A stretch of DNA of 64,000 nucleotides from Nemertoderma westbladi. Its lineage: Eukaryota; Animalia; Xenacoelomorpha. The notes beneath the pieces were generated by a model, which was not told the DNA's origin, made no database searches, and was given only the letters and a program-made list of their open reading frames with translations. The DNA lies in the NCBI GenBank assembly GCA_032718475.1, contig JAUCBJ010008811.1, positions 54,820-118,819 on the forward strand, given 5' to 3'. Within the stretch, counting starts at the first letter, position 1, and each line of letters opens with the position of its first letter. Shown one piece after another: positions 776 through 35,148 of the stretch. A program made the translations under genes and the position numbers.

Positions 776-1036
776 TTCTGGAGTTTCGAATATTTGAACG
801 TTAATAATTTGGTCAATCCTAATTGAAATGTCACCAAACTTGGAAAACATCTCTGTGCAAAATTAACAACCTTATTCCATTTAAAGTTCGTTAAATCTGC
901 AATTTGTCCTATATCTAGGAGTTTGTATTTTTATGAATTCGTTTAGTTTTAACATTATTACCTCAAAATAAATATCAACCCCGCGAAACCTTCCCAAACT
1001 TATTATTATTATTTAGTTTTTTATTTTATAGCAAAC

Positions 1037-3289
1037 ATGCCTAGATCATCAACATTCGTTGACTGTCCTGTCTGCAATAAGAACATGCGCAGTGATAATC
1101 TCAACAAACATCTCGCAACTCATTTTAAACAATATTCATGCGATTGTTGTGGCACCTGGTCCTCCGATAAGAAAACTATGGTTAGCCATCTAGCGCTATG
1201 TACGCAAGGTGGGACTGGGTTCAGATTTATCAACGAAGAAAACACTTGCAAGTGTGGCGAATCATTCACTTTATCAGCCTTTAAAGAACACGATTGCTAT
1301 ACGCGACTCTTCTCTCGGAAACGCAAACAATCTCAAACGCCTTTGTCACCACCACCACCACCTCCACCACCAAACATTCAATCTCCAAGGGTTGGCCCTT
1401 CTACTTCAAGACAACAGACTGGAGGTTCGACCAACAACCCATTTTTACCATCCGTGAATAGCTCATCCCACAACCGCTTATTTACATATACAAACACGTT
1501 ACTTACACCACAATTAGATGTAGAGTTAACACTTAGAGAAAATGAAAGTTATATTTGGGATAGAGTGAGTCAACATTTTAATAATGAATTTAATTTTATA
1601 AAAGTTTGGTTAACTATTTCTATCTTAATGGAAAGGGAGACATCTGAGGGTACTCAATTAGAAACCTTCAGTTTCAAATCAAACGCTTCAAATAATCAAA
1701 TAACTTCTAATTTAGATTTTGAAAACTGGTTTTCGCAAACTATCGAACGAATAGATGAATTAATAGCAGTCTTTGTTTGCATGGGCAGTGGTTGGAATAT
1801 TGTTTCAATCAAAGAAATCAATTTACAAATTTCTACCTTCAATCGCAACCCCTATTTAAAAGGACACGGTGGTGGTTATATTCCTAAAATTTTAGCAAAG
1901 AAACAGTGCATTATTAACTTAGATTGCCCCATCGGGGAATGTTTTAAGTACGCAGTAGTCGCTGCTGCTTGTTATAAAAAAATTGAAAGAAAGAAACAAA
2001 ATATTAGACTATTGTCAACATATACTCCATACATGACCATGTTTGATTTCAGTACGATGAGTTTCCCAGTAGATAGAGTAGTAGGCATTCCACGTTTTTT
2101 AGAAACCAACCCTTTGTACTGCATTAATTTATTATTTTGGAGTACTGATAACATATTGAGCATTCTATCACAACCAAATTCAGAACATTGCTTCCAAAAA
2201 ACTGTTTTAAATTTAATGTTTATAGAAGGTAATCAAAACAATCCAGGACATTACTGCGCAATTGTCAACTTAAATAGACTTATTAATAAATCAGGACAAG
2301 GGACCAAAAAAATTTGTAAGCGTTGTCTGAGAGCTTTTTATACTATTAACTCATTGCAAACTCATCGGGAACTATGTTACACAAGCAAACGACAATTGGA
2401 ACAAATGCCTACACCAGATAAATTAAAAATTAAATTCAATCGATTAGATAAGACTTTATCCCCTCCCTTTTGCATATATGCCGATATTGAAAGTGTTTTA
2501 GAACCTACATCAAACCCTAAATTAGTTCAAAAGCACATTGCTAGCGCCGCCGCATTTTATACAGTACCCAATCGCGAGCTAATAAATCCCCCACAAACAT
2601 CATTGCAAATGTTTAGAGACACTGGAACAAACCATGTTATAGACGATTTTCTCACTGCTCTCGAATCACACTGTAGGGAATTATACGAGTGGACTATTTC
2701 TGGTACAAACACCAATGTTCCTAAACATTTGACTCGAGCACAGCAACAAAATTTTGATAATGCTACAAACTGTTACACTCGTAACTGTTCTCTAACCCCT
2801 GATTCACATGGACTGAATCTAGCAGAAAATCTCAATACTAAAGTTTGTGACCACAACCATCTAACGGGAGCCTATCGTGGAGCGGCATGTGTTAGTTGCA
2901 ACCGCAAACTTTCTCTTAAACGCAATAAATTTTATGTAGTGCTACACAACCTGAGGCATTACGATTCCCATTTAATATTAAAAGAAGGCCTGAAAAACAG
3001 TTCTAGAACTCATTGGCAGATAAATGTAATTCCAAAGAACACTGCGACTTATATCAATATAGAAATATCATTTCCCATAGACAAAACCATGCAGACAGCA
3101 AATGCAAAAGAAAGTATTGTCATCAATCTTCTAGACTCTCTACAGTTCATGACAGCTAGTCTAGATAAGCTAAGTAGTTATCTTACTGCAAACAATTCTG
3201 ATCTAACAAAAGCTATCCCACACACTTTGAAACAAATGAAAAATCTTCATCCCACCAATATTAGCGATTCCAAGGCATGTTTGCTATAA
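1037..3289 (+). pseudogene. Polinton protein-primed DNA polymerase B, N-terminal two-thirds only (Zn fingers, terminal-protein region, exonuclease, endonuclease-VII-like insert)
   Basis: C2H2-like N-terminus; motifs GSGW, CFKYAV, IYADIES (ExoI), DHNHLTGAYRG..C..CN, HNLRHYDSH (ExoII), LDSLQFMTASLDKL. Breaks at ~3269 before the polymerase motifs. Collinear with the copy at 30588-34600. Confidence 0.92.
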
Positions 3290-3408
3290 AATAAAAAAAC
3301 TAAATAATAATAATAAGTTTGGGAAGGTTTCGTAGGGATGGTTTTTATTTTGAGGCAATAATGTTAAAACTAAACGAATTCATAAAAATACAAATTTATT
3401 GTTCTTAC
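3284..3408 (-). other. Putative spliceosomal intron in the pPolB 5' UTR
   Basis: Minus strand reads CAG|GTAAGA at 3408 and TTTTATAG|CAAACATG at 3284. The same acceptor precedes the ATG at 1037, and TTTTCTAG|ATTCAAGATG precedes 30588. Confidence 0.55.
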
Positions 3409-4286
3409 CTGCAGATTGATTCGTGGTATTGGAAAAAGAAAATTGCTCGATTAGGAATAATAAGAAGGAAAATCAAATCACATTGATGTTATAAATGTTT
3501 GCAACAATATATTATTTATAATAATAAATGTATTATGTATAACAATCTTGAAGAAAATATAATATTATGTATAACAATAAATGTATTATAACTTTAAATA
3601 AAAAGTAAAATGGTCAATAATATTTTTGTAAGTAAAGTTCAAAGCGATGGATGGGGGTTTATAAGGGAAAGGGTAACCAATGAAAATAAAAGTGAAGCTT
3701 GTGGGAACCAATAGAAATAAAAAAGAGAGAGAGAGAGATGTGCTATTGGATTGAGCGAATAATAAACACATTTCATTGGGTTCATTAAATGTAAAACATT
3801 AGTTAGGATGGGAAATGGGGTGAATTGAGAAGCGGGGAGTGCGCCGGAGAAAAGTGTATGTAATGAATGGGCTGCTGCGTCAGAATGGGTATGTTAATTA
3901 ATGTTACACTAGAGTATCTGAACAAATATTTTAGGCATGGTATGGCAAGCGTGAGGGGTTATGCATTACTTCAAACAAAAAACTACAGTAACTAGTATAG
4001 AGAAGGTTGGGGGTTAATTTGACACATGGTGTTTGGGTACTGGCTTTGTCGTTGAGCTAATACTCGGAGTGTGCGATTAGGCTCGCGGACTGCTTCGCAA
4101 CACAATGCGAAAGAATGCAATCTATTGCAAGACCAGATGTTTATTCTAATTTCTCTGGCGAATTGACAATGGTTTACATGATAACGAAGCTGGAGTTTAA
4201 ATAATTTAAAATGTGTGGCAGGCCCACGTTGACATAGAGTATAACTCAACATGGGATTCCGTGGGATGCTTAATCCTTCACGCATG

Positions 4287-5225
4287 AGTAGTATGGTAAA
4301 CACCTGGAATAAAACAGCGTCTGCCATAGTCTACCATGTTAAAGAATTTGCCGAACGGCTCTTGCCCCGCCTACTTACTATGATTACCATTGTTGCCCCA
4401 CCCACTTACTATGGTTACCATTGTGCATATGTAACATATGTCACCACTGTGTATATGTGACATATGTGGTATAAGGCCAGTCCACAGACGGAAGTAATTT
4501 AATTAATTTGTGTCAATCGGTAGGCGTTTGACCTTGAACCGCAATAGGTAAAACCCAATATAGTAAGTGGGTTGCAGACGTTTGTTATAAAGTCTTTAAC
4601 ATGATAGACTATTACAGATGCAACAACTAAAAAAGGTGAATAAACACAGACTAACGGTGGCTACCAATATTGTCAAGCAATAAGTTGCGGGGGGCGAGCC
4701 GCGAAGTGAGAATAAGGTATTTATAATATTATTTTAATTTGATTATTCTACCTATGGGGCGAGCCATGAAGTGAGTGATAGCATCGAAGTAAGGTTATTG
4801 TATTTATACTTATCACTACGCAACAAGTTGTGGGGCGAGCCACGAAGTGAGTATAAGGTTATAGTATTTATAATATTATTTTAATTTGATTATTCTACCT
4901 ATGGGGCGAGCCATGAAGTGAGTGGTAGCATCGAAGTAAGGTTATTGTATTTATAATATTATTATTTTAATTTGATCATTTACTTAAATCCGGCACCGCT
5001 TTATTTAAAAATTTCTCCCACCACCCACCCGCTTATCCCGCTATCACCATCCGCCCAATCTTCTTCCTCATCCTCAACATCATTACCACCGCCACCATCA
5101 CCCAACATCCCCATCATTACTTCCAACATTGAAAAAATGGGGCGAGCCATGAAGCGAGTGAAGCCTTAGCATATGGGTGCCATTAATGAGTTGTGGGGCG
5201 AGCTACGACGAAGTAAGGTTATTGT
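4287..5225 (+). repeat. Left terminal inverted repeat of Polinton B
   Basis: Near-identical reverse complement of 20641-21587; contains iterated GGGGCGAGCCAYGAAG modules. Confidence 0.95.
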
Positions 5226-5382
5226 TATATGTGGAGGGGCGAGCCATGTCCTGAGCCTTCACGCAGCACGAAGTAAGCAAAGCCTTTAGCATGTAGGTAC
5301 TATTGTTGAATTTGTTGATTTTATTTATTAACGTTATTATATTACTTTAAATTATTATATTAATTATATTAAATTACTTACA

Positions 5383-5664
5383 TTAATTTTCGGTTGGAGG
5401 TGGCGTATGCGTTTCACCGATCATCCGCGGTGGGCACACACACATCGGTCGCCCCCCTGCGATCGGCAAGACGATCGCCGGGCGCGCTGGGGCCAAATCA
5501 TCATTATACCTGCAGTTTACCTCAATTGAGTGCATCACCCGCACCCTTTGTGCCCACATAACTCTTCTTAGATTCATCCTGTTCCATTTTTCTAAATTAA
5601 ATGTTGGAGGATGATGCTCGAAGGGTTGAACAACTAACGTCGGTTTTTTGCCGCCTTCAGCCAT
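5383..5664 (-). CDS. Small Pro-rich subterminal Polinton ORF, unknown function
   Basis: 93 aa. Positional homolog of 36328-36789 (MAEGGKKPT vs MAAGGDKPT; CVCPP vs CACPP). TATA-like TATATAA upstream at ~5750. Confidence 0.55.
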   Translation of the reverse strand: MAEGGKKPTLVVQPFEHHPPTFNLEKWNRMNLRRVMWAQRVRVMHSIEVNCRYNDDLAPARPAIVLPIAGGRPMCVCPPRMIGETHTPPPTEN

Positions 5665-6323
5665 TGAAATTGAAATTAATAATTAATAAATTAAGAATAA
5701 TATTAAAAATTAAAATAATAAAGTGATGCCGCTATCGTGATTCTCAATGTTATATAGCAAACTACAACAGAACTAATAACTACTTTGGTAAGGCTAATTT
5801 TCTATGCTTCGAAATTTATAGGAAGTTTTTCAAATAAGGCTAATTATCTATGCTTCGTATATGGCTTATTTCTTCTTTTGTGAAACCGGCCACATATGTG
5901 AGTAAATTGAACCCAGAGCTTTGATTGTCATTAGAGCGTTTAATTATTGTCTAATGCGTGTAGCGTGGATAGAGATTCTGGCCTTTGTGTTAACCACATA
6001 GGTTGGGCGGCAGATGCTTGGCATATAACGGAAGAGTTGGGTCCCAATGTGCTCTATACCCAATTATTATATTATTATTCCAGTTTTACCAGCCGCCCAC
6101 ACGTTAAAGAGACCCCCGCGAGGTTTCTGTGATTGACGATAAAAATTAAAAACGAATAGTGCTGCGTGAAGATCCCAACCCACGTCACTTACCGCGTCCC
6201 ATATATTTATTAAAAATATTGCTATTACTATATACCCAAGAAATAAATATTTATTATTAATATTAACGCTAATAATATGTTCACACACCGCAATTGAATA
6301 TACCCATAACCGAAATAAATAAA

Positions 6324-6770
6324 TTATTTTATTAATGAAAGTGTCCACAGTAATAACAATAAATCATTGTACCGCAAATTAGAGGTGAATATATTCATTG
6401 CTCCAGGATTTTTCGGCACCTTGGTTAAATAATACAGGCAAAATAGACCACACTGAGTCGATTGCGGCGCTTGAAACATTTTACGATTCCAAGTATGCCT
6501 TTGGGTACCATATTTATGCAGCCAATATGATATTTTTGGTGGCGGGCGGGGCTTTACCAAACGAATCTAAATAATAAGCAATTCTGTTAACCACGCGTAC
6601 GCAAGACCAGTGTTGTCCTGGTAGGCCTATACGTTGATTATTAATAATAAATGAATAATTTTGTTTATGCTTATTTTTTTTGTGTGTATTAGGTGTAATT
6701 GGTCGATTGCGTAAACACCGATGTATTCGGGCCCCACCGGGAATTTCGCTAATTGTATAGAGTCCAACAT
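6324..6770 (-). pseudogene. Adenain-like (C5) cysteine maturation protease, frameshifted
   Basis: GQHW, YLDSFG and QCG catalytic motifs split across frames; nearly identical to the intact copy at 35149-35586. Confidence 0.9.
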
Positions 6771-6864
6771 CTTAGCGTACGCGTATCATTAAAAGTTTAA
6801 GAGAATTTTTCTAATTCTGCAGGCGGTGTGGCTTCGCTTACTTTGTACTATGCGAGATCTTTAT

Positions 6865-8084
6865 TTATTCGGTTATTATTTCCTTGGCTTCTGAAATAGA
6901 TAGAAGAGCGTCATAGCTTGCCATTAATATAACGTTAATAGTGTTAACTAGCGCATTACTAAATTTCAGAATCAAATGTCCGCTTGTATGTATACTAGGT
7001 TGAATCTCATGGCTTTGATCGCCTCCGGCGGTAAGATCAAATACGATCAAAGGAAATTGGGTACGAAACCGTTCTGGTGTTAGCGAGCAAAATACGCCGC
7101 TCAAGCTCTTGAACACGTTCATTAAACTTTCGAATTCCAACATAAAATTGTTTTCCGGAAAGTTAGGGCGATATGGATACCCGTGTATAATACGGGAGTC
7201 GATGTTTAGTTCGGCATAATTTAAACCGAAATGGTTAAAATGTAGCGGATTACTGCTTAATTCCCCGTTGAAGCTGGCGTTGGTAAGCATTCCAATCAAA
7301 ATATACTTAGGTAATTTCCCTTGGATTATGTTCGATTCTGTATAACTGGACTGCCCGCCACCAATAGTGAAGGTTTTCACTTCTTGTTTTAACAAGTTAT
7401 AAATAAAGTCATTTTTTTGTGACCCCAACAAATGCGCACGCATAACCTCGGCATCAATCCTGTGGCGTTTTATTTTTAAATTAATATTCATGATTTCAAC
7501 TCTTGGGTTTACCAATCCTGCGGGGGGTTCAACTTTCAAAAAAAAATTATTCGATACTCGGTCTATACGAAGTCAAATGTTAATTCCTGGCGGCAGTAAT
7601 TTGTCCTGGCTTGTTAGGTCTAAAAAAATTGGGGCCACAATGAATTTAACATAATTCCCGCGAACGTCATTCTCAGTAGCGACTGGTACCCTGCCTAGAT
7701 TATTATTTGTATCTTCATAACCGCCAGCTCTTAAAATACTGCGTTTTTCGTTAGCATCTGTCAGCAGTAATGTCTGAAACGTAGACTTATAGGCGTAGAA
7801 CCCATTCGAGGTTTCAACTAGCTTTTCATTTAGGTATAACGAACAATTTTCAAATAGTGACCCACCGGGGTAATTGAGATGGTGGAGGGTTGTATCGTCG
7901 TTAGCCCTATTACCATCCCACGTAATTTTATATTTAATGTGAAATTTCGAATTCTTTAAATCAGTATATATTGCCTGGCATTCGCATCAAGAGTAGAAAT
8001 CGGGTAGATATCCAAAAAATGTGAAGATGTATATTCTCGCTGATTTGTTTTACTCGAGAATAATGATAATTCTAATTTACTCAT
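6865..8084 (-). pseudogene. Polinton major capsid protein (double jelly-roll), frameshifted
   Basis: Pieces MSKLELSLF...YPISTL; GGSLFENCSLYLNEKLV...YAYK; DLTSQDKLLPPG; GKLPKYILIGM...FNG...NPLHFNHF...FDLT, typical of Polinton MCP. Confidence 0.85.
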
Positions 8085-8091
8085 TGTTAAG

Positions 8092-8619
8092 TTACATAAA
8101 AATGTCGCGACATTTATTATTTCGCTTTTTACGTTTGCGCCCAACGTTCATACCCACACTTGGGTGTCGCCGTTTCCCGCTCCTCTTTTTTTTACTTTTC
8201 GGGTTTGTAAATTCATTGTATACCCGTTGGGCGATTTGGCGTGTCTTTGGATGAGGTTCTAACCGCGCGGCCACTTTATTTATCAAATCATCTGCTTTAC
8301 TGCGTAAAATACGTTTTCCTTCCGGTATTATGTATTTCCGCGCTACTCTTGCTGCTTTGGGGAGCGCTTTAGTTAGCACCTTTCTCCCTAACTTGCGCGC
8401 TAATATACCGAGGCCAGTTGTTAATATTCCGCGCCCACGCTGACGATTTTGGGTGTATTGCCGCCCGAATTTATTATTCTTATTATTCCATATACCAGTA
8501 GATGGGCCAAACCCTGGGAGAATGCTTCCACCCTTAAAAACGGGTATATCACTATAATTCCCACTTCCCAGTTGGATTTGTGGGGCGCTATATAATTTAA
8601 ACAAATTAGAATCTGACAT
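8092..8619 (-). CDS. Basic Arg/Lys-rich putative core (DNA-condensing) protein
   Basis: 175 aa, very basic, QLGSG and QRGRG motifs, C-terminal ...RDIF, immediately upstream of MCP as is usual in Polintons. Confidence 0.65.
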   Translation of the reverse strand: MSDSNLFKLYSAPQIQLGSGNYSDIPVFKGGSILPGFGPSTGIWNNKNNKFGRQYTQNRQRGRGILTTGLGILARKLGRKVLTKALPKAARVARKYIIPEGKRILRSKADDLINKVAARLEPHPKTRQIAQRVYNEFTNPKSKKKRSGKRRHPSVGMNVGRKRKKRNNKCRDIFM

Positions 8620-8741
8620 TATTATTATGAGTATTTATTATAACGTATAATAATAATTCTTTACTACATACGTATATGTGTAATCAACAAATAATATATG
8701 TACCACATAATAATACAATATAATTAATAAATATATATGCA

Positions 8742-9335
8742 TTAATTTGATGACAACCATTTCCCATAACCAACTGCGAGTTTCATAGAACAGTAATTAA
8801 AACAAGAATCTTTATCAGAATGGTAGGCACAATTTGTTATTCCCGAATAATCATGAAAAAGACATTTGGTGTCATAATCAATATATTTTTCGTTTATGCC
8901 GTACGTTTCTAGAAGTGTTCCATTCACATTAAATTCATTTTTTAAAATAAATAATTTCGGTATTCTGCGTATTAATATTTGAAACCCCAACTGTTTTTTT
9001 TCTTGTAACCATTCCTGTATGTACATTTTAAATGCGCTTTGGTCCATAAATCCGTAGCCAAAATTAATGTGATGCGTAATATTGGCGAGTTGTGTGAGAC
9101 GATCGTATTCGCTTAAACTTATAATTTTTGCGGGTGGACCATTAATAAACCATACGTTTTCTAATGATTTGATGGTAGTATTATAAGCCGCAAACTCTTT
9201 AAAATAAATGGTTGCAACGGCGTGTTGGCCGATCTGCGGATGATGCGTATAATATTGGAAATCTACTATTATTCCCGGGGTTTCCAGCGTCGGGTAATAA
9301 TCACGCCCATGGCTGCGGCTTAGAAATTTATCCAT
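8742..9335 (-). CDS. Conserved Polinton ORF, DnaQ/DEDD-exonuclease-like fold (probably degenerate)
   Basis: IIVDFQY...FKEFA...HHINFGYG...CLFH...C pattern resembling a recurrent Polinton accessory protein. Confidence 0.45.
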   Translation of the reverse strand: MDKFLSRSHGRDYYPTLETPGIIVDFQYYTHHPQIGQHAVATIYFKEFAAYNTTIKSLENVWFINGPPAKIISLSEYDRLTQLANITHHINFGYGFMDQSAFKMYIQEWLQEKKQLGFQILIRRIPKLFILKNEFNVNGTLLETYGINEKYIDYDTKCLFHDYSGITNCAYHSDKDSCFNYCSMKLAVGYGKWLSSN

Positions 9336-9409
9336 ATAGTCGCTATTACTTCAGATAATCAGATAAGAATAAATAATAAATAATTTACATCGATTAAATT
9401 GTGACTATC

Positions 9410-10213
9410 TCAATCAATTCGTATAAAATGAAGCGTCAATATTGAATTTCCATAATGAAAGCGCAACAAATTTCCCGAATCCCCAATCAACCGAACTCGT
9501 ATATAACGTAAATTAGATGTTGAATTAACTTTTTTATAGTAGACTTCCTGAACTTCTCGACTAATAATTTGCCCATATTCCCCTTCTATGGGTATGCCAC
9601 GTAACAGAGGGTATTCGCTATTGTCTACAAATTGAGGTTCGACGCAATTGATATGTATATTTATGTTGGGTTCCAGTATTTCGACAGCATTAGGATGCTT
9701 ATGGCAATTGTACTTATTATTTCGTGAATCAATCCTTAGCAAGTGATAATCCCCTACAGCATTTTGTACACACATAAAACCTTTGCCGTCAACCTCGTGT
9801 TCTGTTAATCCTAGGTAACCACCCAAACGTTTACTGACAAATATCGACAACTGTTTACCTTTAAAATGTATGGTTATATTACCGGAGCGTGCTCTATTAT
9901 CAATTTTATTAATTTGGCCTTTAATAAGGCTTTTGTTGAAGTACTCAATGATCCTTTCCAACGATAGGAAAGATCCTTCGGGGAGAGTAACATCTCTTGT
10001 AAACATTTTTTTATTTTTTATGGCCTTTATATAAATGTCGCTATTGTCATACCTGATACTAGATACGTACGTTATACCAGTTAAACCTACTAACCACTGC
10101 CCTCTAGCGAAAGGTAAAGGAATTTGCAAATTTGTTTGGAAATCGCTGGCGCTATTACGTGGGAATTCTATGGGGTTTGCGTTTGATGGTAGTACAACGT
10201 AATAACTGTTCAT
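9410..10213 (-). CDS. Polinton minor capsid protein (penton)
   Basis: YYVVLPSN...FPRNSASDF...WLVGL N-terminus; CVEPQFV...PLLR...YYK...IRVRL...LHF C-terminus. Confidence 0.85.
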   Translation of the reverse strand: MNSYYVVLPSNANPIEFPRNSASDFQTNLQIPLPFARGQWLVGLTGITYVSSIRYDNSDIYIKAIKNKKMFTRDVTLPEGSFLSLERIIEYFNKSLIKGQINKIDNRARSGNITIHFKGKQLSIFVSKRLGGYLGLTEHEVDGKGFMCVQNAVGDYHLLRIDSRNNKYNCHKHPNAVEILEPNINIHINCVEPQFVDNSEYPLLRGIPIEGEYGQIISREVQEVYYKKVNSTSNLRYIRVRLIGDSGNLLRFHYGNSILTLHFIRID

Positions 10214-10467
10214 TCTTGTAGTTTTTGTCGCCGTTGTTGTTTTTTGAGTTCTAGAACTAAAATTGTTTTACCTCCATGAAAGACTATATGCTTTCCTTTA
10301 TGGTCGCGAAGCGTTATACTAATTGTATCGAGCACTTTTTTATTTTTTAATTGTTTGTAATGTGTGTTTTTGAATTCCTGGTTGATGAATGAGTATGGTT
10401 CCCATTTCAAGGGGATTATCCGCAAAAGAGGCACCATCGAATGTCCTACGTGAGAAGATTCAATCAT
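10210..10467 (-). pseudogene. Second penton paralog, C-terminal remnant
   Basis: VGHSMVPLLRIIP...HYKQL...DTISITLRD..G...F..G..ILVL parallels the penton C-terminus; upstream sequence is decayed. Confidence 0.7.
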
Positions 10468-10857
10468 ATCTGTATATATAAACTATAAGTTATATAAGGT
10501 ATAAGTTTATTTTCTATATAGAGTTTATTATTATCACTCCACCGTACTCTGTCTCGCGAGAATCGCATCAAATAACTCAACAATCGTTTGGCTTTCTGGG
10601 ATGAAATTGTCACACCATCTAGCGGTTATATTATATTATTGCTTTTCTTATTATTATTATTATAAGTATCCATTAATAAAGTAGAAACTAGATACAACTT
10701 CTTAAAATTTCCGAGGCTAATCTCGTTATTTTTCATCGTTATATATCATTATTAATATATTAATACTATATACTAGAGTTCACGTTCATGGACCGATAAT
10801 AACCTAATTTTGGTGAAAGTCTAAACAAGGTGTGAAAATGGTTTTAGCGCGGCGTCG

Positions 10858-11567
10858 CTACTGAGGTATAGACTGAGCCTCAGGGCGTTGGTGAGGTGTG
10901 TTAGAGTTCATATTCGTGGGTTGATAAACAGTTTGCCCTAATGGGTTGAAAATATCACCCCTAACTCTTATACTATCATCCGTTTTTTGATGAAAGTCTA
11001 AGAGAAGGTGTGTGAATGGTTTTTGTGTGGCGTCACTATATGCTTGAACAATAAAATTGCTATTTTTTGGGTACACTTGCCGCGCTATATAGCTTATTTG
11101 ACTTGCGTCGCGGGGATTTTTTGTGAAAATACAATATTGGCATTTAGACTTCTAGTCCGTGTTTCCGCCCCTTTACTGAAGAAATTTTGTGTTATATAGA
11201 TAATGAAACAGGAAGTATGATGGCAGGTTTTTGTGAAGCTTTCTGTCAAACTCTCATCACTCTTACTTTCGCTTAACAAGTCGTCTATAATAATTAGATC
11301 GTTTTCGCGGAAAATAGAATTAATTTTTTGCGGTAAACCTTTGAATAGATGTGTTATACCTGGGAATTCTGGTGGGGTGGCGCCATAAAAGAATAATACA
11401 TGCTTCGGGGTTATATCAAAAACTAAATTTTTATTTTTTACAATTTTTGATACCAGCACTGTTTTTCCGGAAGAACTTGGACCCGCAATAATCATGGCCG
11501 AACCCATCTTGAAAGAGGCGTCGTTTGATGTGATTGGTTCCTGCGATATCGTCGGCTCTCGGGACAT
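10858..11567 (-). pseudogene. FtsK/HerA (A32-like) packaging ATPase, one frameshift near 11115
   Basis: Walker A IIAGPSSSGKT, Walker B IIIDDL, ITQNFF, RTRSLNA; continues in 10858-11076 (PFTHLLLDF...IRVR). Confidence 0.9.
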
Positions 11568-12046
11568 TGTTGATAGGTAGGCACTAAGTAGATGGGAAAC
11601 CTAGAAACTTGACGGTTGACGCGTGTACCAGAGGTACTAGGTCTATACCCCCGGCGGGATTGGGCTAATTTTCTGCCTCTTACAGCCGTTATTATGGGTG
11701 ATATTTTCTGATAAGCGTTAAGCCCACTCATTAAACCAGAGATTAGTAGATTTATAAATCCGCCCCTTTGCACCAATCGTTTACGATAAATTCGAATGGG
11801 ATACTTGGCTTTTGGTTTTTTAGCGATCTCGCGTATTGTTTTTTTATGGCGTTTTAACCTCACGATTGTTTGCTCAGGAATTTTTACGTTACCATTTAAT
11901 ACATTTAGAATAATATTAATTAGAAAACTTATAAGTTCGTCGGTACCGCCGACGCGTAAGAAGGTTTTTCTACGGTTGAGGGAGGCGTTAGATAAGAACT
12001 TTAAATCCCCCTCAAATTGTTTAATTAAAGCTTTGAGTGATTTCAT
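11492..12046 (-). CDS. Conserved Polinton basic protein with QxGGF hydrophobic motif (adenovirus pX-like)
   Basis: LNVLNGNV...LKRHKKTIREIA...RKRLVQRGGFINLLISGL; upstream of the ATPase. Confidence 0.7.
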   Translation of the reverse strand: MKSLKALIKQFEGDLKFLSNASLNRRKTFLRVGGTDELISFLINIILNVLNGNVKIPEQTIVRLKRHKKTIREIAKKPKAKYPIRIYRKRLVQRGGFINLLISGLMSGLNAYQKISPIITAVRGRKLAQSRRGYRPSTSGTRVNRQVSRFPIYLVPTYQQCPESRRYRRNQSHQTTPLSRWVRP

Positions 12047-12476
12047 TACATATATTAATAACTTATATAAACGAGAACAATAATTGTAAGTAATAAAACA
12101 CCACCACCGTTATAAATAGTATCGATTATATGCGTGGGTGGGGTTTTTCACGCGATAAAACCGAGCAATTATAGGAACCGGCACTCTTTAAAACCTAACA
12201 TCAATAATAATTAATAAAATACATTATATAACGCGAACAATGAATTAATTTTGACATACTGACTGACAGAAAGACCGACAAATAGACAGATAGACTAGAT
12301 TTATGTAAATATAAACCGACATCAGAAATGAAATTGACGCCCTTGACAACCTAAGACTACCGATAAAACACGTTATATATAATGTGAATAATGTTAATAT
12401 CCGCGTTTATTTAAAAACCTAACGAGATCCCACCGGACAAACCTAAAACTGGCACCAGAAATGAAAAAATTAAATA

Positions 12477-13037
12477 TTAAATATTTCTACCTAAATGACT
12501 ATCTAAATTACCGATAAAATTCAAAAACTTTGGAAAAAATACTCGAAATATCCCGGGTCTTGCCATACACACAACATTTCGTGTGTAAAAAACGCAAAAT
12601 GTTATGATATTAGAACTAGTTTTACCCCGACGATAAAACTGCACAAGAATATTATTAAATATCTCCAGCTCATATTTCACCTCCACATTATAATAATTAT
12701 CTAAAAAATGAAACCCAACCGTTTTCATTAATTTGCTATAGTCTATGTCTAGATTGTTAATAATATAAGTTTGGCTATTGATTGAAATAAAAGTTAGTTT
12801 ATAATCAGTATGCTTATATATATACTTAATAATTTTTTTTATTTTAGGCGATTTACCGAGTACAGTGACCTTACCGCTCGGGAAAAAGAGACACGTCCAT
12901 CCGCAAATTTTGGCGATATATTGAAAAGGCTTTAAGATGAGTTTTCCATTTCGAATTCGTTTAGCCAGCACATCGAATGATATGCACCCATCAACCAACC
13001 TCAAACTTATATTACTGTTGACAACACTAAAAGACAT
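12477..13037 (-). CDS. TATA-binding-protein (TBP)-like protein
   Basis: 186 aa, the size of the TBP core. Two pseudo-repeats: TCLFFPSGKVTVLG (cf. TBP LIF.SGK.V.TG) and KYELEIF...FCVFYTRNVVC (cf. SYEPELF...LIFVSGKVVLTG). Confidence 0.72.
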   Translation of the reverse strand: MSFSVVNSNISLRLVDGCISFDVLAKRIRNGKLILKPFQYIAKICGWTCLFFPSGKVTVLGKSPKIKKIIKYIYKHTDYKLTFISINSQTYIINNLDIDYSKLMKTVGFHFLDNYYNVEVKYELEIFNNILVQFYRRGKTSSNIITFCVFYTRNVVCMARPGIFRVFFPKFLNFIGNLDSHLGRNI

Positions 13038-13046
13038 CGCAATCCG

Positions 13047-16000
13047 CTATTCTATAATGGGCGGCATATAAAGCTTAGGGGCGGGCGCTTTACGATCCAA
13101 ATGTGTTTTATAATGGCCGTAAGGTAGACTTTCATTAGTCGATGTGTAGTACCTTTTATCTTCCCACAGTGTTAGCGATTTTTTTCTTTGTGAAACGGTG
13201 TATATTTTATGTAAATTAGATTGAAACCTTTGACTGTATTCATAATGCTCGCTAACCTCGTTATATACTTTTAAATATGATTCGTGGGAGAGTTTCTTTT
13301 TTATAACCATTTTTCCTACGCCTTTAGCGGCACATTGTGGAACTGACCCCCCACGAAAGCTATAACATTTTGGTCTAAGTAAAATAACCTGGTCAAACGG
13401 GATAGACTTCCCTTCATCCTTTAAATATCTATATTTCCCTTTCTGTTCTACTGTATACAACGGATGTGTAATAGGATAATTTGAACAGTCTAAAACTTTT
13501 TTTGATTGTAACGCAGATAAAAATTGGTGTTGGGATAAACCAACACAATGTAAAAAAAAGAATCCGTGTCCCCACCTAACAAATTTATACTACAATTTAA
13601 TTCGGCTTCCAGGGGCTTTAATTTCTCGTAGAAGAAACTGCAATAATCTAACTTCGACAGGTCCAATACAGCTTGCCCTAAAAAAATAGGTTTATGCAAA
13701 CAAACCGCAGTCTTAGATAGGACATGACCCGATAATGAATCAGTGAACATAATTAAATTTTCGTGATTCGGCTTGGATAATAATAAGTCACATTTCTCGA
13801 TTGAATTACATAAGCGAAATGAGACACGGTCCCGTATATTCTCCATGCTTTTCCCGAAAAGCGCGTTATTTGTTCCTTTGTGAAACTTATCATAAAAGTC
13901 ATTGCTTGCTATTTTTCTTTGCTGGGTGTTATATTCAATAAAATCCTTAAAAATGTAACCTTGCTTAAATTTAATAAGTTTATGAACTTTAATCAAGCGC
14001 ATACCATGATCAATATAAAAGCGCAATAATTTTAGATGCACACCGTACTCATACTTATCAAATTGGGTTAACATCAATTTTTTTGCTGGGCTATTGAAAA
14101 TTTTATCACCATTATAATGTCGCCAAAGACTTTTCATGTGTGGACTGAGATACCTACTATCGAGTTTAATATGCTCCGGTGCAAATGGAAGCTCGGCTGT
14201 GGCATCATGAATAGTCATTGGGTATTCAAGGTCTACAATTGCGAAGTATCCATATATTTCGTCAATTTCCAGACTCATGATATCGACACTATCAACATCC
14301 AACCATTCAAAGTCAGAATAAGGAAGTTTCTCCGACAAAGAACCGCTATATAAACTGTTGAAATCTAAATTATATAAATGAGCTTCGGGTTTATTAGGGT
14401 CGTATGTTTCTGTGCCTGGTATATTCGCATTTGCCATGTGAAGGTTGGTGTAAGAAACTCCGCCCCTAATGGAATTTTCGAATGTTAAATACATTTCATG
14501 GTCTGCAAGTAGACGAATATGTGACTTGGAAAATCTCAAAGCCGCGTCCCAACTAACCCCCGCCATCGTGTAATAGTTCGACACCTCAAGCGAATAATGT
14601 TTAGTACAATATGCGCGAAAATTTTCAAAAATATCGGCTAGCAGCAACACGTCAAGATGTAAGTAAGCTTCCAAATAATCAAAAAGTGTCTCACATTGAA
14701 ATTGCTCCCACGAAAGATGTGCAAATGTATATTCTTCAGGGCTAATAGATGATAATGTTAATTCACTGTAAAACTCTTTTGGATGCGGTAATTTAGTATC
14801 CCCCAATTTACTTAAGGAATTGACATATTCGTAAGGAAAAACTGACTTACGGCGTAAAATTTCGTTGGTAACATTTGGATATAATTTTCTCATTTGCTTC
14901 ACGGTGTGTGGAATAACGGTTGTTAAATCTGACACATCTTTTGTCAAAAACCCAGCCAAAGCAGAAAGGGAAAATCCCATAAACACGAATGAATCAATAA
15001 ACTGTATAGTTATTGATTTGCTGGTTGGGAGCCCTCTTACGTCCTTTTCTGGAATAGCATAACCAAGAACGCTAAGTGCTTCTGACATTGGAATATCGAT
15101 GCGGAGTGAGATATATCTTTCAGTATTTTTTGCAATGGTTTCAATGTTCCAATTTTTATATTTACTACTGGCAAACCCTTTTTGTAAAATTAAATGTGAA
15201 TCATAAAAAAAAAATTATGACAGACAACTGGGAATAGGTGACGTTTAACACTTAATTGTTTATTACAGGAAATACACGCCGCACCAATGAAAGCCCCGTT
15301 GTAATGGTTGTGATGCATCACACTTGGATTTATATCTTCCCGAAAAAATGATTTACAATTAAAGCAATTTGTGGTACGCATATAAGCTTGGTATTGTGTG
15401 TGATCCAGGTGTTTGGGGTGGTGTGTGTTAAAGGTAGACCATTCATAACACTTAAATAAATCAAAAACCAGACTATCAATAAAATTCTGTACCGAGTTAT
15501 TATCGATATTTTGTCTAAATGTAGACAAAAAATAATTTGGGGGGTTAATTAATTCACCGTTGGAGACAATCAAATATGAAACAGCCGACGGGAGATGTTC
15601 GGCTATATAATATTTTTTTACATTATTTGTTGGGGCTAGTACCACTTCGAAATCCATATATACTATGAAAGGTGTACTGACAGACTTATAGTAATTAGTA
15701 AAACGTAAATTCAGTTTAGATGGCATCTCCTCTATTTGGCGCCCGCCTTGCCAACACCCTAATCTATGGCGTTCTAACGCATTTGGACTGTAGAAACCAC
15801 GAATACACCGCTCACAACGATGACAATGATGGTCGCTATTGCCTTCCCCACGACTATTAAATAATCTATTTAAGTTACAAACCCCGACGATGTGATTTGT
15901 TGAGGTTAAATTTTGACGTTCAATAAGCAATAAATTTAGCAATCTTTTACCTTCAGCTTTTTTAGCGCTCGGTTGCCGTAGAAAGGAAATTTTTTCACTA

Positions 16001-17060
16001 CTTCTATCAAAATACAATAAATTTATTAAATAATTTGGATTATTTTTTTCAAACTTTAGAATATTTAGTTTCCATGATAGGGTAGAGTCTAATTCGCTTA
16101 AATTAAAAAACCCTAAATACTGATTATAAGAACTTTGGCGTGAAACATGGCGCAGTGTGTGATCATCCGATATATGTTTTGAAAATTCTGCTGTCAGGAC
16201 CACCCACTTAAAACATTCACCTTCATTACACGGTACATTTATTATACAATGTTTATTTTTTAATTTTGTCGGGATTGATTGGTTGGCATCACCGCTATGT
16301 CCAAAACGATATACCGATCGCAAGTATGACGCAATAGTAAGTTTGATGCGCGATAGAGTTACAAGTTTCCAGCCGCTACCCCGCCTAATAAATTGCGATA
16401 TTTTTTCACCGATATGGGAAATGACTTGATGATTCGTCAAAATCCGAGCTATTTTCAATATAATTATCTGTACCGATCGAAGTAAAATGGAATTCTTCTT
16501 CTAGAGTATAATTAGCATCATCACGTTCCATTATCACTGAAGCAATTACCCACACTTTATAAAACATATCAATAAAAGCCGGTGCCGCCGTGTTAAAAGC
16601 GCGCGAAGCATATGACACATTATGGGTATATTCCTGAACGCGTGATTCGTGACATGTTTTTGAGAGATAAAAACCTTCGTTGGGTGTATCTGAACTGTTT
16701 GTAATGCTTACAGGCGAACCAATGTTGAGATCCGGTTGAAATGTCGGTTCTGATTGTTTTTGGTTATGTTTGCATTTGCGGGAATTGTAATGGTTTTGAT
16801 GGCAACTATGTTTGATATATGAATCGAAGTTTTCAAAATCATCAGAGCATGTCGGGCAGGATAGCGTGTAACCGCAGTAGGTGTAATTCGGGCGAGACAA
16901 CCCGCAACATATATTACTGTGAAATATTGCTATTCTTTCAGAAGTAGTTCGGCAATTACAATTATCGCAAACATACCCATCGAAATGTGCGCGTAAATGC
17001 CGTAAATAATTTTTCTTAAGTATAGTACAACCGCAAAAAACGCAATTAATCTCCATCATT
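13047..17060 (-). pseudogene. Protein-primed DNA polymerase B of Polinton B, split into 4 ORFs by frameshifts
   Basis: GSGW, CFKW, YMDFE, EndoVII-like HNHYNG..C..CN, FPYEY, DVLLLADIFENFR, SIRGG, LDFNSLY (motif A), K..NNALFGK (B), GDTDSF (C), RPKCY, AKGV. Confidence 0.95.
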
Positions 17061-17352
17061 ATAATTATTATTATTACGATTATAATATATTTATTAACGT
17101 AGGTACAGAAAACATATTTACAATATGCCGATGAAAGAGATGCGGCAGATTTTATGTAGATAAATATATCCAATACCCAGTCAACCAGCCACCCACGCTA
17201 GAAACCGTTTAACCAACCAAAATTTACTGAACTGACATTATCCTATTTATATGCTCTATTAACTATGTTGTATAATCGCGTGTAAGAGTATTTAAATAGT
17301 ATTGACATGTGTCACCACCCGAGTTTGGTGTTATGCGTTTAATGTCACATAT

Positions 17353-17985
17353 TTAATATGCGCGGTAAAATGTCGAATTAATCTCTTCCCCATACGGCGT
17401 TAAATTCGTCGGTAAAAGCCCAAAATAATCATCTGAATAAATATTAGAAATGTAGAGTATTGCCGCATTACATTGTTGGCATATAAGCTGGCATATTTTA
17501 TCGCCCGATGTTACAACGTATTCCTTAGATGTGTTGTTAATCAATATAATTACAAGTTGATCTATATTACCGCGCGCAACGCCGGAATCAACCGCACATT
17601 CTGCAACATCGATGCCAATTTTTGTCAAGCTAAAAGTCGGTGTAATTCTTCCAAAATAATTGGCGGGTAAATATATTTTAACACCCGTCTCAATTAACAT
17701 CCGTGAGTGCGGCTCTATTGTTCTATTCACGGCGCTATATATGTCAATCCCAGCTGGGCTATATGAACCGCATACAGGTGCCCGAGCTGCCGGGCTTAAC
17801 AATTCAATTTTAATTGGAATAATTGAATTAGGACCGCGGTAACTATTTTCAGCTTGTATTATTGGAAACATTTTTTTATTATGGTGTATTTTACCTAAAA
17901 AAATTCCTAAAAGAAAGGTAACAATGAATAATATATTTGAAAAAATGATCTTATCTATAGACTCAAGCTGCCCCAGTATTGTCAT
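17353..17985 (-). CDS. dUTPase-derived protein with N-terminal transmembrane segment, degenerate catalytic motifs
   Basis: AGIDIYSA (motif 1), FGRITP, GDKICQLI (motif 4). RSG replaced by TFS, motif-3 Tyr absent, no RGxxGFGSTG. Hydrophobic IIFSNILFIVTFLLGIFLG. Confidence 0.85.
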   Translation of the reverse strand: MTILGQLESIDKIIFSNILFIVTFLLGIFLGKIHHNKKMFPIIQAENSYRGPNSIIPIKIELLSPAARAPVCGSYSPAGIDIYSAVNRTIEPHSRMLIETGVKIYLPANYFGRITPTFSLTKIGIDVAECAVDSGVARGNIDQLVIILINNTSKEYVVTSGDKICQLICQQCNAAILYISNIYSDDYFGLLPTNLTPYGEEINSTFYRAY

Positions 17986-18189
17986 GTTGCTTAATCAATA
18001 ATATTTTGACCAATGGATATATTTATAATGGGTGTGTCTTTAAAACGCCGTTCGCGTGCCGCAATCGTTCGTTTTTAGTAAATGATTACAGAAAAATATC
18101 TGTTGTGAGAGAAAGTTTGCGATCCCGGCATTAAATTAAATTCGCTCATGCTTAAAATTATGAAACTTCTAAGAAGCTACACAGTTAAT

Positions 18190-18485
18190 ACAGTTGACGT
18201 CAATCAATTTAACCGTGAGTAGTAATATTCTGCGGAATTTTGAGGGTGTGTCTATAAAAATTTATATAGGCCGCATTAATCGCCGCCGCAAGCTGTTACC
18301 ACTTACGTCAACCAATTTAAGCGTAAATAAATATTTTCCTCGAAATTTATAGGAAGTTTTTCAAAAAAAATTCTCTCAGGACAATAGCGATTAATCCGGT
18401 TGAGTGGTTAAAATATACCCGTTTTCCCGATAGCCCATCATTATATTATAAATACGTCGTAAAATACTTTATTTTGTCATTCGGG
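18190..18485 (+). promoter_or_regulatory. Putative Pol II promoter of the PC4-like gene
   Basis: TGACGTCA at ~18195, TTACGTCA plus CCAAT at ~18303, TATAAATA at ~18447 with a TCATT initiator-like site ~30 bp downstream. Confidence 0.45.
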
Positions 18486-18579
18486 TTAATTCATTATTTC
18501 ATATTTTTCGCACATTGTATAGCGCAATATTATTGTATTTTTACACTTAATTATTAATATTTCACAAAATTTGTTGATG

Positions 18580-19869
18580 GAATCTGCGAAACCATCACAA
18601 CCAAAAATGATGTCATTAAGCGGTAGCTCTACTGATAGCACGCCCGCCCCATACGTATCGGTGATTACAGGTAAGAGTGTGTGGGGCCTCGAGTGTTTGG
18701 GTGAAGGAATAGAAATAAAAGCATTTAACGGGAAATACGTTCGATTCAGCCGTTGGGGTGATACAAAAGGACACAACGTCGTGCAAGAATCGGTAAGTCT
18801 TACTTACCAGAACATAAGATTCCTGTTTGACTTCCTCAATTATAATAAAATAGCCGTTGAATATTACAAGGAATACACCAGAGGCAATTTGCTTATAACA
18901 CCAATAAATCATGCGTACTTACGCATTGGGAAAAACGGTGCATCAATTTTTATCTCGCGAAAAATTCTAGATGTCTTACAAAGCATCTACGGCAAAGTCG
19001 TTCTTTCCCGTATTGAACCAAAAAAGAAGGAAATTCATGATGAGAATTTTATGGAGTTCGAAGATTGTGGGTACATTGGATATATCTACGACTTTGAAGG
19101 GCAACGATTTGTCGGCGTTTGGGAAGTGGATGATATAGGTAGACAGCGGAAGGGTGTTCTATATTACGATGGGTTGAATCTCAGAGCGGATGAATTCTGT
19201 TTGCTCGACTTTAACATAGATAATAATGTTAAGGAGAATATCGACGAGGTTAGTGTAAGGTACACATCGATCGTTAACGAAAACGGGATATATTTGTCCC
19301 ACAACTTCGACACCAAGGCTATTTTCATCCCTCGAAACAACGCAAATGTCAAGATAATTAAGGAATTACAGAAGTACGTGGGCCACGATATTCCGTCTGG
19401 GTGTGAGTTTCTACCGATTAAAAAGTTAGTTGTTGAGGCTGCGATTGATGAATTAGTGGACGAGGAACTAATGAAAGTGGAAATGCCGGACAACGCTAGT
19501 CAGCTGAAGACGTCCGAAGCAGTAAAAGTCACTGCTAAGAAAATGGATGAGAAAAAAATCTGGTTGCCCGCGATTGCAGAAAATGAGCGGGTAGACAGCG
19601 CTGAAAAAAAGAATGATTATAAGGATATTGATACCCTCGTTGGAGGTGTGAGCGCTCAGATGAAGATGAAAACACCTAAAGCCATGAAAGAACAAGCGCT
19701 TAAGCGAAAAATTGATCTCATCGTGAATAAAACACCTAGCTATGAGTATGAAGATATCAGCGACTTTGAAGAGGACATCGTCAATGATACGGATGATGGC
19801 GAAGACATTTGCAATGAAATCGAGACTAATGGGCAACCTCAAATAAAGAAGAATAAACATTCAGTGTGA
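18580..19869 (+). CDS. Protein with tandem PC4-like ssDNA-binding domains and acidic/basic tail
   Basis: IEIKAFNGKYVRFSRW...VSLT and YIYDFEGQRFVGVWE...RKG...LNLRADEF resemble PC4 (F.G...V.IR....KGI.L). NLS-like KRK/KKNK tail. Confidence 0.55.
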   Translation, partial: ESAKPSQPKMMSLSGSSTDSTPAPYVSVITGKSVWGLECLGEGIEIKAFNGKYVRFSRWGDTKGHNVVQESVSLTYQNIRFLFDFLNYNKIAVEYYKEYTRGNLLITPINHAYLRIGKNGASIFISRKILDVLQSIYGKVVLSRIEPKKKEIHDENFMEFEDCGYIGYIYDFEGQRFVGVWEVDDIGRQRKGVLYYDGLNLRADEFCLLDFNIDNNVKENIDEVSVRYTSIVNENGIYLSHNFDTKAIFIPRNNANVKIIKELQKYVGHDIPSGCEFLPIKKLVVEAAIDELVDEELMKVEMPDNASQLKTSEAVKVTAKKMDEKKIWLPAIAENERVDSAEKKNDYKDIDTLVGGVSAQMKMKTPKAMKEQALKRKIDLIVNKTPSYEYEDISDFEEDIVNDTDDGEDICNEIETNGQPQIKKNKHSV

Positions 19870-20101
19870 ATCTTCGAGCGGTAGAAACTTTATTATATAA
19901 ATAGACCATGTTCGTAGGCGGTGTCGCCGCAACGAGTCGGGCATGGTTAAATTATTATTATTATTTTGTGGTGGTAAATTATTTGTTGGTATAATGAATT
20001 ATCGATTGAAATAAATATTATATAAATTTATTTATAGTATTATACATTATTATACACATATTTATATATTTATTACTTTATTTTATTTATTATACACGGA
20101 T

Positions 20102-20554
20102 ATGTTGGGGGAAAATGAACTTGTGGTGGATGAAGTAGATATGGATGTGGAGGAAGAGGTGGAAGAGGTGGAAGATGTGGATGATGTGGATGTGGCGGCT
20201 GAAATAGCGAAGGAGAATGAAGCAATATTGGTGGCTATGTATGCGAGGGAGAAAGAAGAAGCGCGGTTGGAGAGGTTGTTAAATCCAAGAAATGAATGGG
20301 AGGAGATAGAGAAGAACCATTATTTGGAGGAAGAGGCGAGAAGGAACAGCGCGTGGGGTGAAGATTGGGAGTTGGAGATGGAGGCTGAGGGGGTTAGGAG
20401 AGCGAGGGAGGCTGAGAGGTGTGCACAGGAGAAGGTGATGAAAGAAAGGATTGAGATGTTAGAAGGAATGATGGGGATGTTGGGTGATGGTGGTGGTGGT
20501 AATGGTAATAATGTGGAGGATGTAGATAGCGAGGATAGCGGGATAAATGGGTGA
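20102..20554 (+). CDS. Highly acidic helical protein with AWGEDW motif
   Basis: 150-aa ATG-initiated ORF, last gene before the right TIR of B. Confidence 0.6.
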   Translation: MLGENELVVDEVDMDVEEEVEEVEDVDDVDVAAEIAKENEAILVAMYAREKEEARLERLLNPRNEWEEIEKNHYLEEEARRNSAWGEDWELEMEAEGVRRAREAERCAQEKVMKERIEMLEGMMGMLGDGGGGNGNNVEDVDSEDSGING

Positions 20555-20640
20555 GGTGGTGGAAGAAATTTTAAAATAGTAATGGTGATGGATTTAAGTA
20601 TAATAATCAAATTTGTTGGTATAATGATAATATTATAAAT

Positions 20641-21587
20641 ACAATAACCTTACTTCGTCGTAGCTCGCCCCACAACTCATTAATGGCACCCATATGCTAA
20701 GGCTTCACTCGCTTCATGGCTCGCCCCATTTTTTCAATGTTGGAAAGAATGATGGGGATGTTGGGTGATGGCGGTGGTGGTAATGATGTTGAGGATGAGG
20801 AAGAAGATTGGGCGGATGGTGATAGCAGGATAAGCGGGTGGGTGATGGGAGAAATTTTTAAATAAAGCGGTGCCGGATTTAAGTAAATGATCAAATTAAA
20901 ATAATAATATTATAAATACAATAACCTTACTTCGATGCTATCACTCACTTCATGGCTCGCCCCATAGGTAGAATAATCAAATTAAAATAATATTATAAAT
21001 ACTATAACCTTATACTCACTTCATGGCTCGCCCCACAACTTGTTGCGTAGTGATAAGTATAAATACAATAACCTTACTTCGATGCTATCACTCACTTCAT
21101 GGCTTGCCCCATAGGTAGAATAATCAAATTAAAATAATATTATAAATACCTTATTCTCACTTCGCGGCTCGCCCCCGCAACTTATTGCTTGACAATATTG
21201 GTAGCCACCGTTAGTCTGTGTTTATTCACCTTTTTTAGTTGTTGCGTCTGTAATAGTCTATCATGTTAAAGACTTTATAACAAACGTCTGCAACCCACTT
21301 ACTATATTGGGTTTTACCTATTGCGGTTCAAGGTCAAACGCCAACTGGTAGACACAAATTAATTAAATTACTTCTGTCTGTGGACTGGCCTTATACCACA
21401 TATGTCACATATACACAGTGGTGACATATGTTACATATGCACAATGGTAACCATAGTAACCATAGTAAGTGGGTGGGGCTACAATGGTAATCATAGTAAG
21501 TAGGCGGGGCAAGAGCCGTTCGGCAAATTCTTTAACATGGTAGACTATGGCAGACGCTGTTTTATTCCAGGTGTTTACCATACTACT
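20641..21587 (-). repeat. Right terminal inverted repeat of Polinton B
   Basis: Reverse complement of 4287-5225 with few substitutions and a 9-bp duplication near 21450. Confidence 0.95.
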
Positions 21588-21640
21588 CGCATGCCATACC
21601 AAAAACTATGGTCCTGTTTGAAATGTTAAGGTGGACCTTT

Positions 21641-23933: not shown

Positions 23934-24012
23934 CTAGCCAGTGATACCGATTCTCTAATTCTAAGCGTTACCAATACACCACAGTTAACCTTTCTACGGG
24001 CAATGTTTGAGG
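23934..24012 (+). pseudogene. Short pPolB fragment around motif C
   Basis: Translates LASDTDSLILSVTNTPQLTFLRAMFE; nucleotide match to 34103-34182. Confidence 0.85.
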
Positions 24013-24241
24013 ATGCATTTGAAGTTGAACTTAGCGTCTACAAAGACAGCATTTCCGAATGGATATCGATACAAAGTTGAATCAGCGATTCAGAATATGA
24101 TTTACAGCTAACCAAGACAATTTAATGAATCCTTTACTATAGCTAACACGATTCAAGTGCGCGAAGCTCTAATCAGATTCAAGGCTGCGGCTATACAATT
24201 TGCTTTCAAACCAAAGCAGATTATGATTCACAATCACCAAC

Positions 24242-35055: not shown

Positions 35056-35148
35056 TAAAGATCTCGTATAGTACAAAGTAAGCGAAGCCGCACCGCCGGT
35101 GGAATTAGGAAAATTCTCTTAAACTTTTAATGATACGCACACGCTGAG

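Follow-up and report, generated by a model that had tools for sequence, protein, structure and literature searches.

A conserved TBP-like gene beside pPolB in two Polinton-type families of Nemertoderma westbladi

Polintons, or Mavericks (adintoviruses), are by convention marked by long TIRs, AG...CT termini and a 6-bp TSD. They have no RNA polymerase of their own, and we know of no account of how their capsid genes are timed. Viral TATA-binding proteins (TBPs) are well known.

According to the covered part of PMC7221094, viruses with a TBP nearly always have a gene for a TFIIB-like protein as well. Against this background a lone TBP, as described here, is an unusual feature. The TBPs of the large-DNA-virus pairs in that part, together with that of the Polinton-type contig L015 discussed below, resemble the present proteins in being viral, two-lobed and diverged in their surfaces. 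They are, however, paired with a viral TFIIB, and none was detected in the window, that is, the whole stretch of 64,000 nucleotides analyzed (contig JAUCBJ010008811.1, positions 54,820 to 118,819). According to the sections covered of PMC12529657, the vTBPs of beta- and gammaherpesviruses, such as KSHV ORF24, likewise serve viruses without their own RNA polymerase and keep the intercalating Phe residues while the DNA interface is changed. ORF24, on the other hand, is described there as a large multi-domain protein that is part of a six-member complex, binds Pol II directly, reads TATTWAA and lacks the TFIIB-binding acids, in contrast to the bare 186-aa core described here, which keeps these acids in one of its two copies.

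A named counterpart appears in Starrett et al. (2021; PMC8502044, preprint 10.1101/697771), where the legend of Fig. 5 mentions a MELD virus gene similar to TATA-binding proteins. MELD viruses have an adintovirus-like PolB, and the TBP-labelled gene belongs, as here, to a pPolB virus or element of middle size. Within the text and the one supplement covered, the label occurs in this legend only and no bearer is named, and the lineage may or may not match ours. It is also the sole relevant mention in the literature searched on Polintons, Mavericks or adintoviruses in combination with TBP, TATA or TFIIB, a set that includes few subscription papers. A Polinton TBP is absent from the main texts of PMC11161782, 10.64898/2026.06.19.733378 and PMC12220804.

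The window contains a decayed Polinton-type element of 17.3 kb (element 1, 4287-21587) with termini AGTAGT...ACTACT. It is flanked by a 6-bp TSD (4281-4286, identical to the right copy at 21588-21593), and its TIRs of about 940 nt (4287-5225 and 20641-21587) differ from each other by 16 mismatches and 2 gaps. With Polintons and Mavericks it shares the long TIRs, the AG...CT termini, the 6-bp TSD and genes for pPolB, an ATPase, capsid-like proteins and a protease, the last three by blastp to Polinton-type loci (E 1e-24 to 1e-6). Genes on the minus strand start with a dUTPase (17353-17985; Pfam PF00692, E=2.4e-15) and the family-1 pPolB, split into four frame pieces (13047-17059; 213 homologues at E≤1e-30, including adintovirus PolB). 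These are followed by the TBP-like ORF, a basic protein like the ATPase neighbour in other Polintons (11492-12046; blastp to L008, L161 and L162, E about 1e-6), a packaging ATPase (A32/FtsK-like) recognized by similarity in two pieces (10858-11567) and two penton-like frames (9410-10482), namely a fragment at 10482-10210 and an ORF at 10213-9410. Downstream lie an intact orphan ORF of 197 aa (8742-9335), a basic core-like protein of 175 aa (8092-8619), labelled by composition and position, a broken major capsid protein (6865-8084), whose C-terminal piece is closest to L111 (28%, E=1e-24), and a broken cysteine protease (6324-6770) recognized by similarity. The capsid labels, including the inferred ones of the penton-like frames and the major capsid protein, rest on similarity and gene order. 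A second intact orphan, of 430 aa, is found on the plus strand (18577-19869); neither orphan has a confident Pfam, NCBIfam or PHROGs match.

Compared to Polintons and Mavericks, the TBP-like and dUTPase genes are extra here and an integrase was detected in neither copy of the element, tblastn with three Polinton integrases returning nothing like a retroviral integrase at E≤1 in the window. Element 1 is a Polinton-derived copy without integrase. Its 6-bp TSD suggests that an integrase did act, either in trans or before its loss. The stretch between ATPase and penton genes (10210-10860), where L008-like Polintons carry their integrase, holds a short degraded stretch and the penton-like fragment, and is likely the site of this loss. 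Among the 33 ORFs of the window scanned with Pfam there is no TFIIB, and tblastn with the TFIIB of L015 gave a best match of E=0.086, located inside pPolB; an RNA polymerase gene was not detected in the elements either. Since both element copies are decayed or deleted, the TFIIB content of intact families may differ.

Two repeat features of element 1 contain TATA words. Sub-repeats of about 140 nt in the TIRs (4680-4980 and 20886-21188) carry a GGGCGAGCC word and four TATAAA words per TIR. In addition, a 29-nt direct repeat (97%) that includes a canonical minus-strand TATA word occurs before a small terminal ORF (5809-5837) and in the divergent intergenic region ahead of the dUTPase (18340-18368), and is possibly a duplicated early promoter.

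The TBP-like ORF of element 1 (copy 1; 12477-13037, minus strand) encodes 186 aa with 26 K+R and 10 D+E residues. As the first-pass annotation of this DNA had claimed, it is intact from ATG to stop and lies directly downstream of pPolB, its ATG at 13037 following the last pPolB frame piece by 9 nt. When the flanking 1.45 kb (12047-13500) was dinucleotide-shuffled 1000 times, no ORF of this length arose, and a chance ORF is rejected. About eight frame breaks are spread over some 11 kb of ORFs in the element, however; at that rate a gene of 561 nt would by simple arithmetic stay intact by chance in one-half to two-thirds of cases, so the open frame is no sign of selection on this particular copy. 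Only part of the proposed two-repeat TBP signature stood: both motifs, F.SGK.T..G (residues 52-61) and YE.E.F (residues 122-127), are present, but they represent different positions of the two lobes, and no internal repeat is detectable at the sequence level.

A diverged syntenic copy had been proposed at about 34650-35055. The frame found there (copy 2; 34672-35055, plus strand, 127 aa stop to stop) is homologous to copy 1, with 29% protein identity over 97 aa (E=1e-9) and a longest DNA match of at most 14 nt. It begins about 130 nt after a second pPolB, that of family 2 (30505-34539, plus strand, in pieces, PF03175 over the cut-off), whose pieces are 19-47% identical to those of family 1 (36-47% without the N-terminal piece). 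Contrary to what an intact gene would show, copy 2 is broken at both ends: it has no in-frame start codon at its 5' end, it is without its last third, and it stops at a junction at 35054. Past this point the DNA turns into a protease arm (35054-35771, plus strand) that is 92% identical to 6865-6141 of element 1 and includes a protease ORF (35149-35586, plus strand). A terminal repeat remnant (37031-38035) is missing its last ~52 nt, and no left terminal repeat is present in 26000-30600. Element 2 is a remnant consisting of pPolB, the TBP-like frame, the protease arm and part of a terminal repeat.

Further fragments and repeats lie elsewhere in the window. Fragments at 23934-24015 and 25940-26011 are 86% identical to the pPolB end and the TBP-like gene of family 2, and a third pPolB fragment (953-3289), 59-67% identical to family 2 and ending before the polymerase domain, is flanked by 122-nt inverted repeats (922-1042 and 3273-3394). 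Tandem arrays at 43569-48700, 22487-23920 and 1-775 have units of 48, 168 and about 50 nt, respectively, the 168-nt unit recurring at 38066-38428, directly after element 2. An ORF fragment with LINE-like PHD and endonuclease parts lies at 28110-29057 and a BEL/Pao retrotransposon fragment at 52319-52927.

Presence of the gene across each family was assessed from contig depth in public sequencing runs, four per locus and contigs throughout, where depth is not a measure of copy number. Copy 1 is covered in run X3 by a contig of depth 3345, next to neighbours of 2767 and 3081-3270, and for family 2 the values are 1843-2122 over the TBP-like gene versus 1975 over pPolB; run X4 leaves part of copy 1 without cover. 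A search for RNA over the region listed no sample. High-depth contigs differ from copy 1, among the rows listed, by at least four differences at three or more codons, at least two of which are non-synonymous, and there are no indels inside the ORF among the differences listed. The changed codons include that of residue 38, a candidate intercalating Phe, and one in the lobe-2 motif, at which other copies are nearer to the TBP pattern than copy 1. A third, diverged subfamily, present in X1 and X3, aligns without gaps to the 5' portion of the ORF at ~82% and also matches the end of pPolB, the 67 nt in between being unmatched. Depth on a par with that of the neighbours in both families and the same slot in a third subfamily indicate a conserved element gene, as had been claimed, and not a chance capture; the TBP-like gene is a real, conserved gene of two Polinton-type families.

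The junction at 35054 was examined in the same way. Contigs over copy 2 extend beyond it into other sequence in all four runs (three samples), and the X1 contig that bridges the junction has a depth of 75 versus thousands, indicating that the cut is local to copy 2 or to few copies. Read by eye, the frame past the cut fits the fourth-Phe strand pattern of TBP.

Scans with pPolB alignments listed 91 related loci, the metagenome part comprising 80 of 345, and 23 of the 91 are at least 10 kb long. Two distinct contigs among them bear a TBP, so this is not a general Polinton trait as far as these loci go. The first, the metagenome Polinton L111, has the order pPolB, a 186-aa ORF and TBP (49 bits, over the cut-off), followed by protease, capsid and core genes on the opposite strand. 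The 186-aa ORF (L111:2793-3353) is conserved, belongs to no known family, overlaps the TBP start and is begun in L108 and L109. The second contig, L015, encodes TBP (51.8 bits), TFIIB (42.9 bits) and an integrase, with TBP and TFIIB among the capsid genes and away from pPolB. Its adjacent TBP and TFIIB genes (L015:9876-11071) lie in a 20.6-kb Polinton on an IMG/VR contig that has been assigned to a giant-virus bin, perhaps through mis-binning or because the element is integrated; the TBP cluster concerned counts 26 members, one of which was found on 201 contigs.

For the pPolB tree, 141 of 211 stretches were used (69 database proteins were thinned out and one duplicate was dropped) with a quick method and midpoint rooting. 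In this tree the pPolBs of families 1 and 2 form a sister pair (SH-aLRT 98, subject to a long-branch warning) and fall, together with L111, in a 16-row clade (SH-aLRT 99) that excludes the L015 contig. The expected synteny of pPolB and TBP does recur in this clade, since L111 has a clear TBP one ORF past pPolB; the penton fragment and the C-terminal capsid piece of element 1 are also closest to L111. Named pPolB relatives of family 1 come mostly from insects (34-37%). On the other hand, the short stretches downstream of pPolB in the clade loci L119, L135, L150, L156, L157, L159 and L163 hold other ORFs and no TBP, and loci L108-L110 end at pPolB or soon after. These loci do not show the TBP-like gene to be universal, even within this clade. 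The first-pass annotation had counted two independent copies. The families are diverged indeed, but with their pPolBs as sisters one ancestral gain is likelier than two; two independent captures are not needed, and a single gain of TBP in this pPolB lineage would be the simplest reading. Recent capture of a host TBP gene is rejected as well, the proteins being far too diverged from cellular TBP for that.

The identity of the gene products was approached with profiles, an embedding atlas and fold comparisons, which gave part of the anticipated TBP match. TBP (PF00352) is the sole Pfam family listed for copy 1 (13.8 bits, E=0.053; all of Pfam, E≤10) and for copy 2 (13.4 bits, E=0.069; E≤0.1). 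As neither score reaches the gathering threshold of 22.9 bits, we class the proteins as TBP-like and not as threshold members of the TBP family. No TBP match for the protein came from NCBIfam, PHROGs or a search of PDB sequences, and hhalign probabilities versus TBPs were just 5-16%. In the ESM Atlas, TBP clusters make up 29 of the 30 matches listed for either copy, with top scores of 0.94 for copy 1 (203 of 256 features in common) and 0.93 for copy 2 (189 features), at recognition values of 1818 and 1795, below the 2300 under which a high score is weak evidence. A single-lobe profile was built that left out the window proteins and drew on at most 23 TBPs of archaea and viruses. Its score was equalled or beaten by none of 1000 shuffles for copy 1 and by 1 of 1000 for copy 2, and, taken by lobe, by 0 of 1000 for the first and 16 of 1000 for the second. 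When 3872 frames of the window and the loci were searched with this profile, only the two copies scored at E<1 besides its own members. Direct search of 1.84 billion representatives yielded 0 matches, a word-indexed search restricted to near lengths found no homologue, and no locus was listed when loci were scanned with the copy 1 protein or with the alignment of the two copies, although one such scan counted eight confirmed stretches. The four loci picked up with a degenerate motif were all chance matches in phage genes.

AlphaFold models of copy 1 are of low confidence, with a pLDDT of 35.0 for the single sequence and 38.1 with a four-row Polinton alignment. Compared to 48,161 structures, the low-confidence alignment-based model ranked TBP chains 3rd, 4th and 19th over residues 34-90 (Z 4.2, 3.9 and 3.2; rmsd 2.7-3.1; 56-57 residues aligned), with 23-32% identity versus at most 13% in the other 47 rows listed; the ranking is partly circular, the model alignment having included two known TBPs. 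With these models Foldseek had no match at E≤0.001, nor was a TBP among the matches it listed; the 50 rows listed by a wide VIA search with the single-sequence model were mostly kinase N-lobes, again without a TBP. Given the low confidence of the models, such absence is no evidence against the fold.

Cellular TBPs (PF00352; eukaryotic and archaeal) resemble copy 1 in their length of ~180 aa and in the order of landmarks over the two lobes. The window proteins are about 18-25% identical to them, below the Pfam cut-off, and have about 10 extra residues after lobe-2 helix 1. By alignment, three of the four Phe residues, the first Asn and the acidic stirrup are kept in copy 1. In a 12-row alignment of both copies with Polinton and archaeal TBPs, in which the start of lobe 2 is misplaced, Asn7, Gly55, Tyr122, Glu125 and Phe127 do not vary, and Phe52, Gly61 and Phe150 are almost constant; a four-row alignment gives a better lobe-2 register. 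The intercalating Phe residues, whose role in TBP is treated in the covered part of PMC12529657, had been singled out for inspection: Phe52, Phe127 and Phe150 align with three of the four positions, while the candidate for the first, Phe38, corresponds to Asn in copy 2 and its codon differs in the contigs of high depth. The first central Asn is Asn7 in 12 of 12 rows, and the second is ambiguous in register by one position (Asn87 versus Ser88). Glu123 and Glu125 of copy 1 align to the acidic stirrup that binds TFIIB, the second alone being found in copy 2; the TFIIB surface of copy 1 appears kept, as judged from the alignment. Several other DNA-facing positions are replaced, among them the strand-5 Thr of either lobe and the Pro that follows the third Phe, and these changes predict an altered sequence preference. 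The last Gly is replaced too. As for TFIIA, lobe-1 helix 2 is Lys-rich in copy 1 and not in copy 2. Furthermore, the TBP of L111 and both copies have a lobe-1 F-P-x-G motif and an L-K-P word in common. Weak lines that agree, a clear TBP in a related Polinton and the residue mapping, set against Pfam scores below the cut-off, make it likely that the products of both copies are heavily diverged TBP homologues with a TBP fold.

As for function, we lean slightly towards a solitary TBP, encoded by the element and altered in specificity, that would direct host TFIIB and Pol II to element promoters. The two-lobed protein would bind AT-rich element promoters and then recruit host TFIIB and RNA polymerase II. 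By analogy with the herpesvirus vTBP (KSHV ORF24), it might be made early along with pPolB and subsequently switch on the structural genes. TATAAA is found upstream of three of six non-structural versus none of seven structural genes, small numbers that provide a lead only. No word of 5 to 8 letters is shared by the seven structural-gene upstream regions above the level of shuffles, a comparison of low power in one decayed copy, and TATAAG and TAAGA each precede one structural gene of seven (the capsid window being off by one base). More tentatively, and with less than even expectation, one lineage of animal Polintons might run the smallest viral transcription switch described so far: a bare, fast-evolving TBP without viral TFIIB or polymerase, its DNA face rewritten and its grip on host TFIIB kept, which travels with pPolB and so ties late genes to replication.

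Alternatively, the TBP fold could serve replication by binding and bending AT-rich TIR DNA and helping to load pPolB. Host DNA-bending factors act at the adenovirus origin. The gene follows pPolB immediately in both families and with one ORF in between in L111, a position that would suit such a role. Element 2, in which pPolB and the TBP-like gene are deeply diverged next to a 92% identical protease arm, looks as if the two moved as one module, although this chimaera may stem from recombination local to that copy. Likewise, the four TATAAA words per TIR, in repeated sub-units, lose weight in AT-rich element 1, where the word occurs 46 times in 17.3 kb. The TBP of L015 sits beside TFIIB among the capsid genes, distant from pPolB, and copy 1 and L111 retain the stirrup acids; we regard a replication role as unlikely.

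We rate as equally unlikely that the protein is a decoy or competitor which binds TATA boxes, host TFIIB or further partners of TBP and thereby dampens host transcription. It would account for the missing partner TFIIB, which almost all TBP-bearing viruses in the covered part of PMC7221094 encode, for the lack of an element-specific promoter word and for the strongly altered DNA-facing residues. For a protein decoy, however, three intercalating Phe positions and the first Asn, retained over a long distance, would be superfluous, and a general inhibitor of transcription would presumably be costly to an element residing in the host genome. Slightly less probable again is that the proteins are not TBP homologues, or have one lobe only, a short strand-turn-strand motif in an unrelated small alpha/beta protein having been mistaken for TBP: the lack of a profile match at threshold, the pLDDT of 35.0 and 38.1, the weak second lobe (16/1000) and the 0 direct homologues in 1.84 billion representatives are in line with this, but TBP is the sole Pfam family and accounts for 29 of 30 Atlas matches for each of two sequences only 29% identical, the lobe-2 landmarks keep their order and spacing in both families, and L111 has a clear TBP in the syntenic slot within the same pPolB clade.

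Scoring below every standard profile threshold, TBP-like genes of this kind have probably been missed in Polinton annotation. For Polintons, the solitary TBP encoded by the element provides a single small candidate protein for the timing of capsid genes. If this reading is true, the protein would represent a TBP whose specificity was altered naturally and which may still fit host TFIIB, a point in which the TBP-TFIIB pairs of large DNA viruses differ from it.
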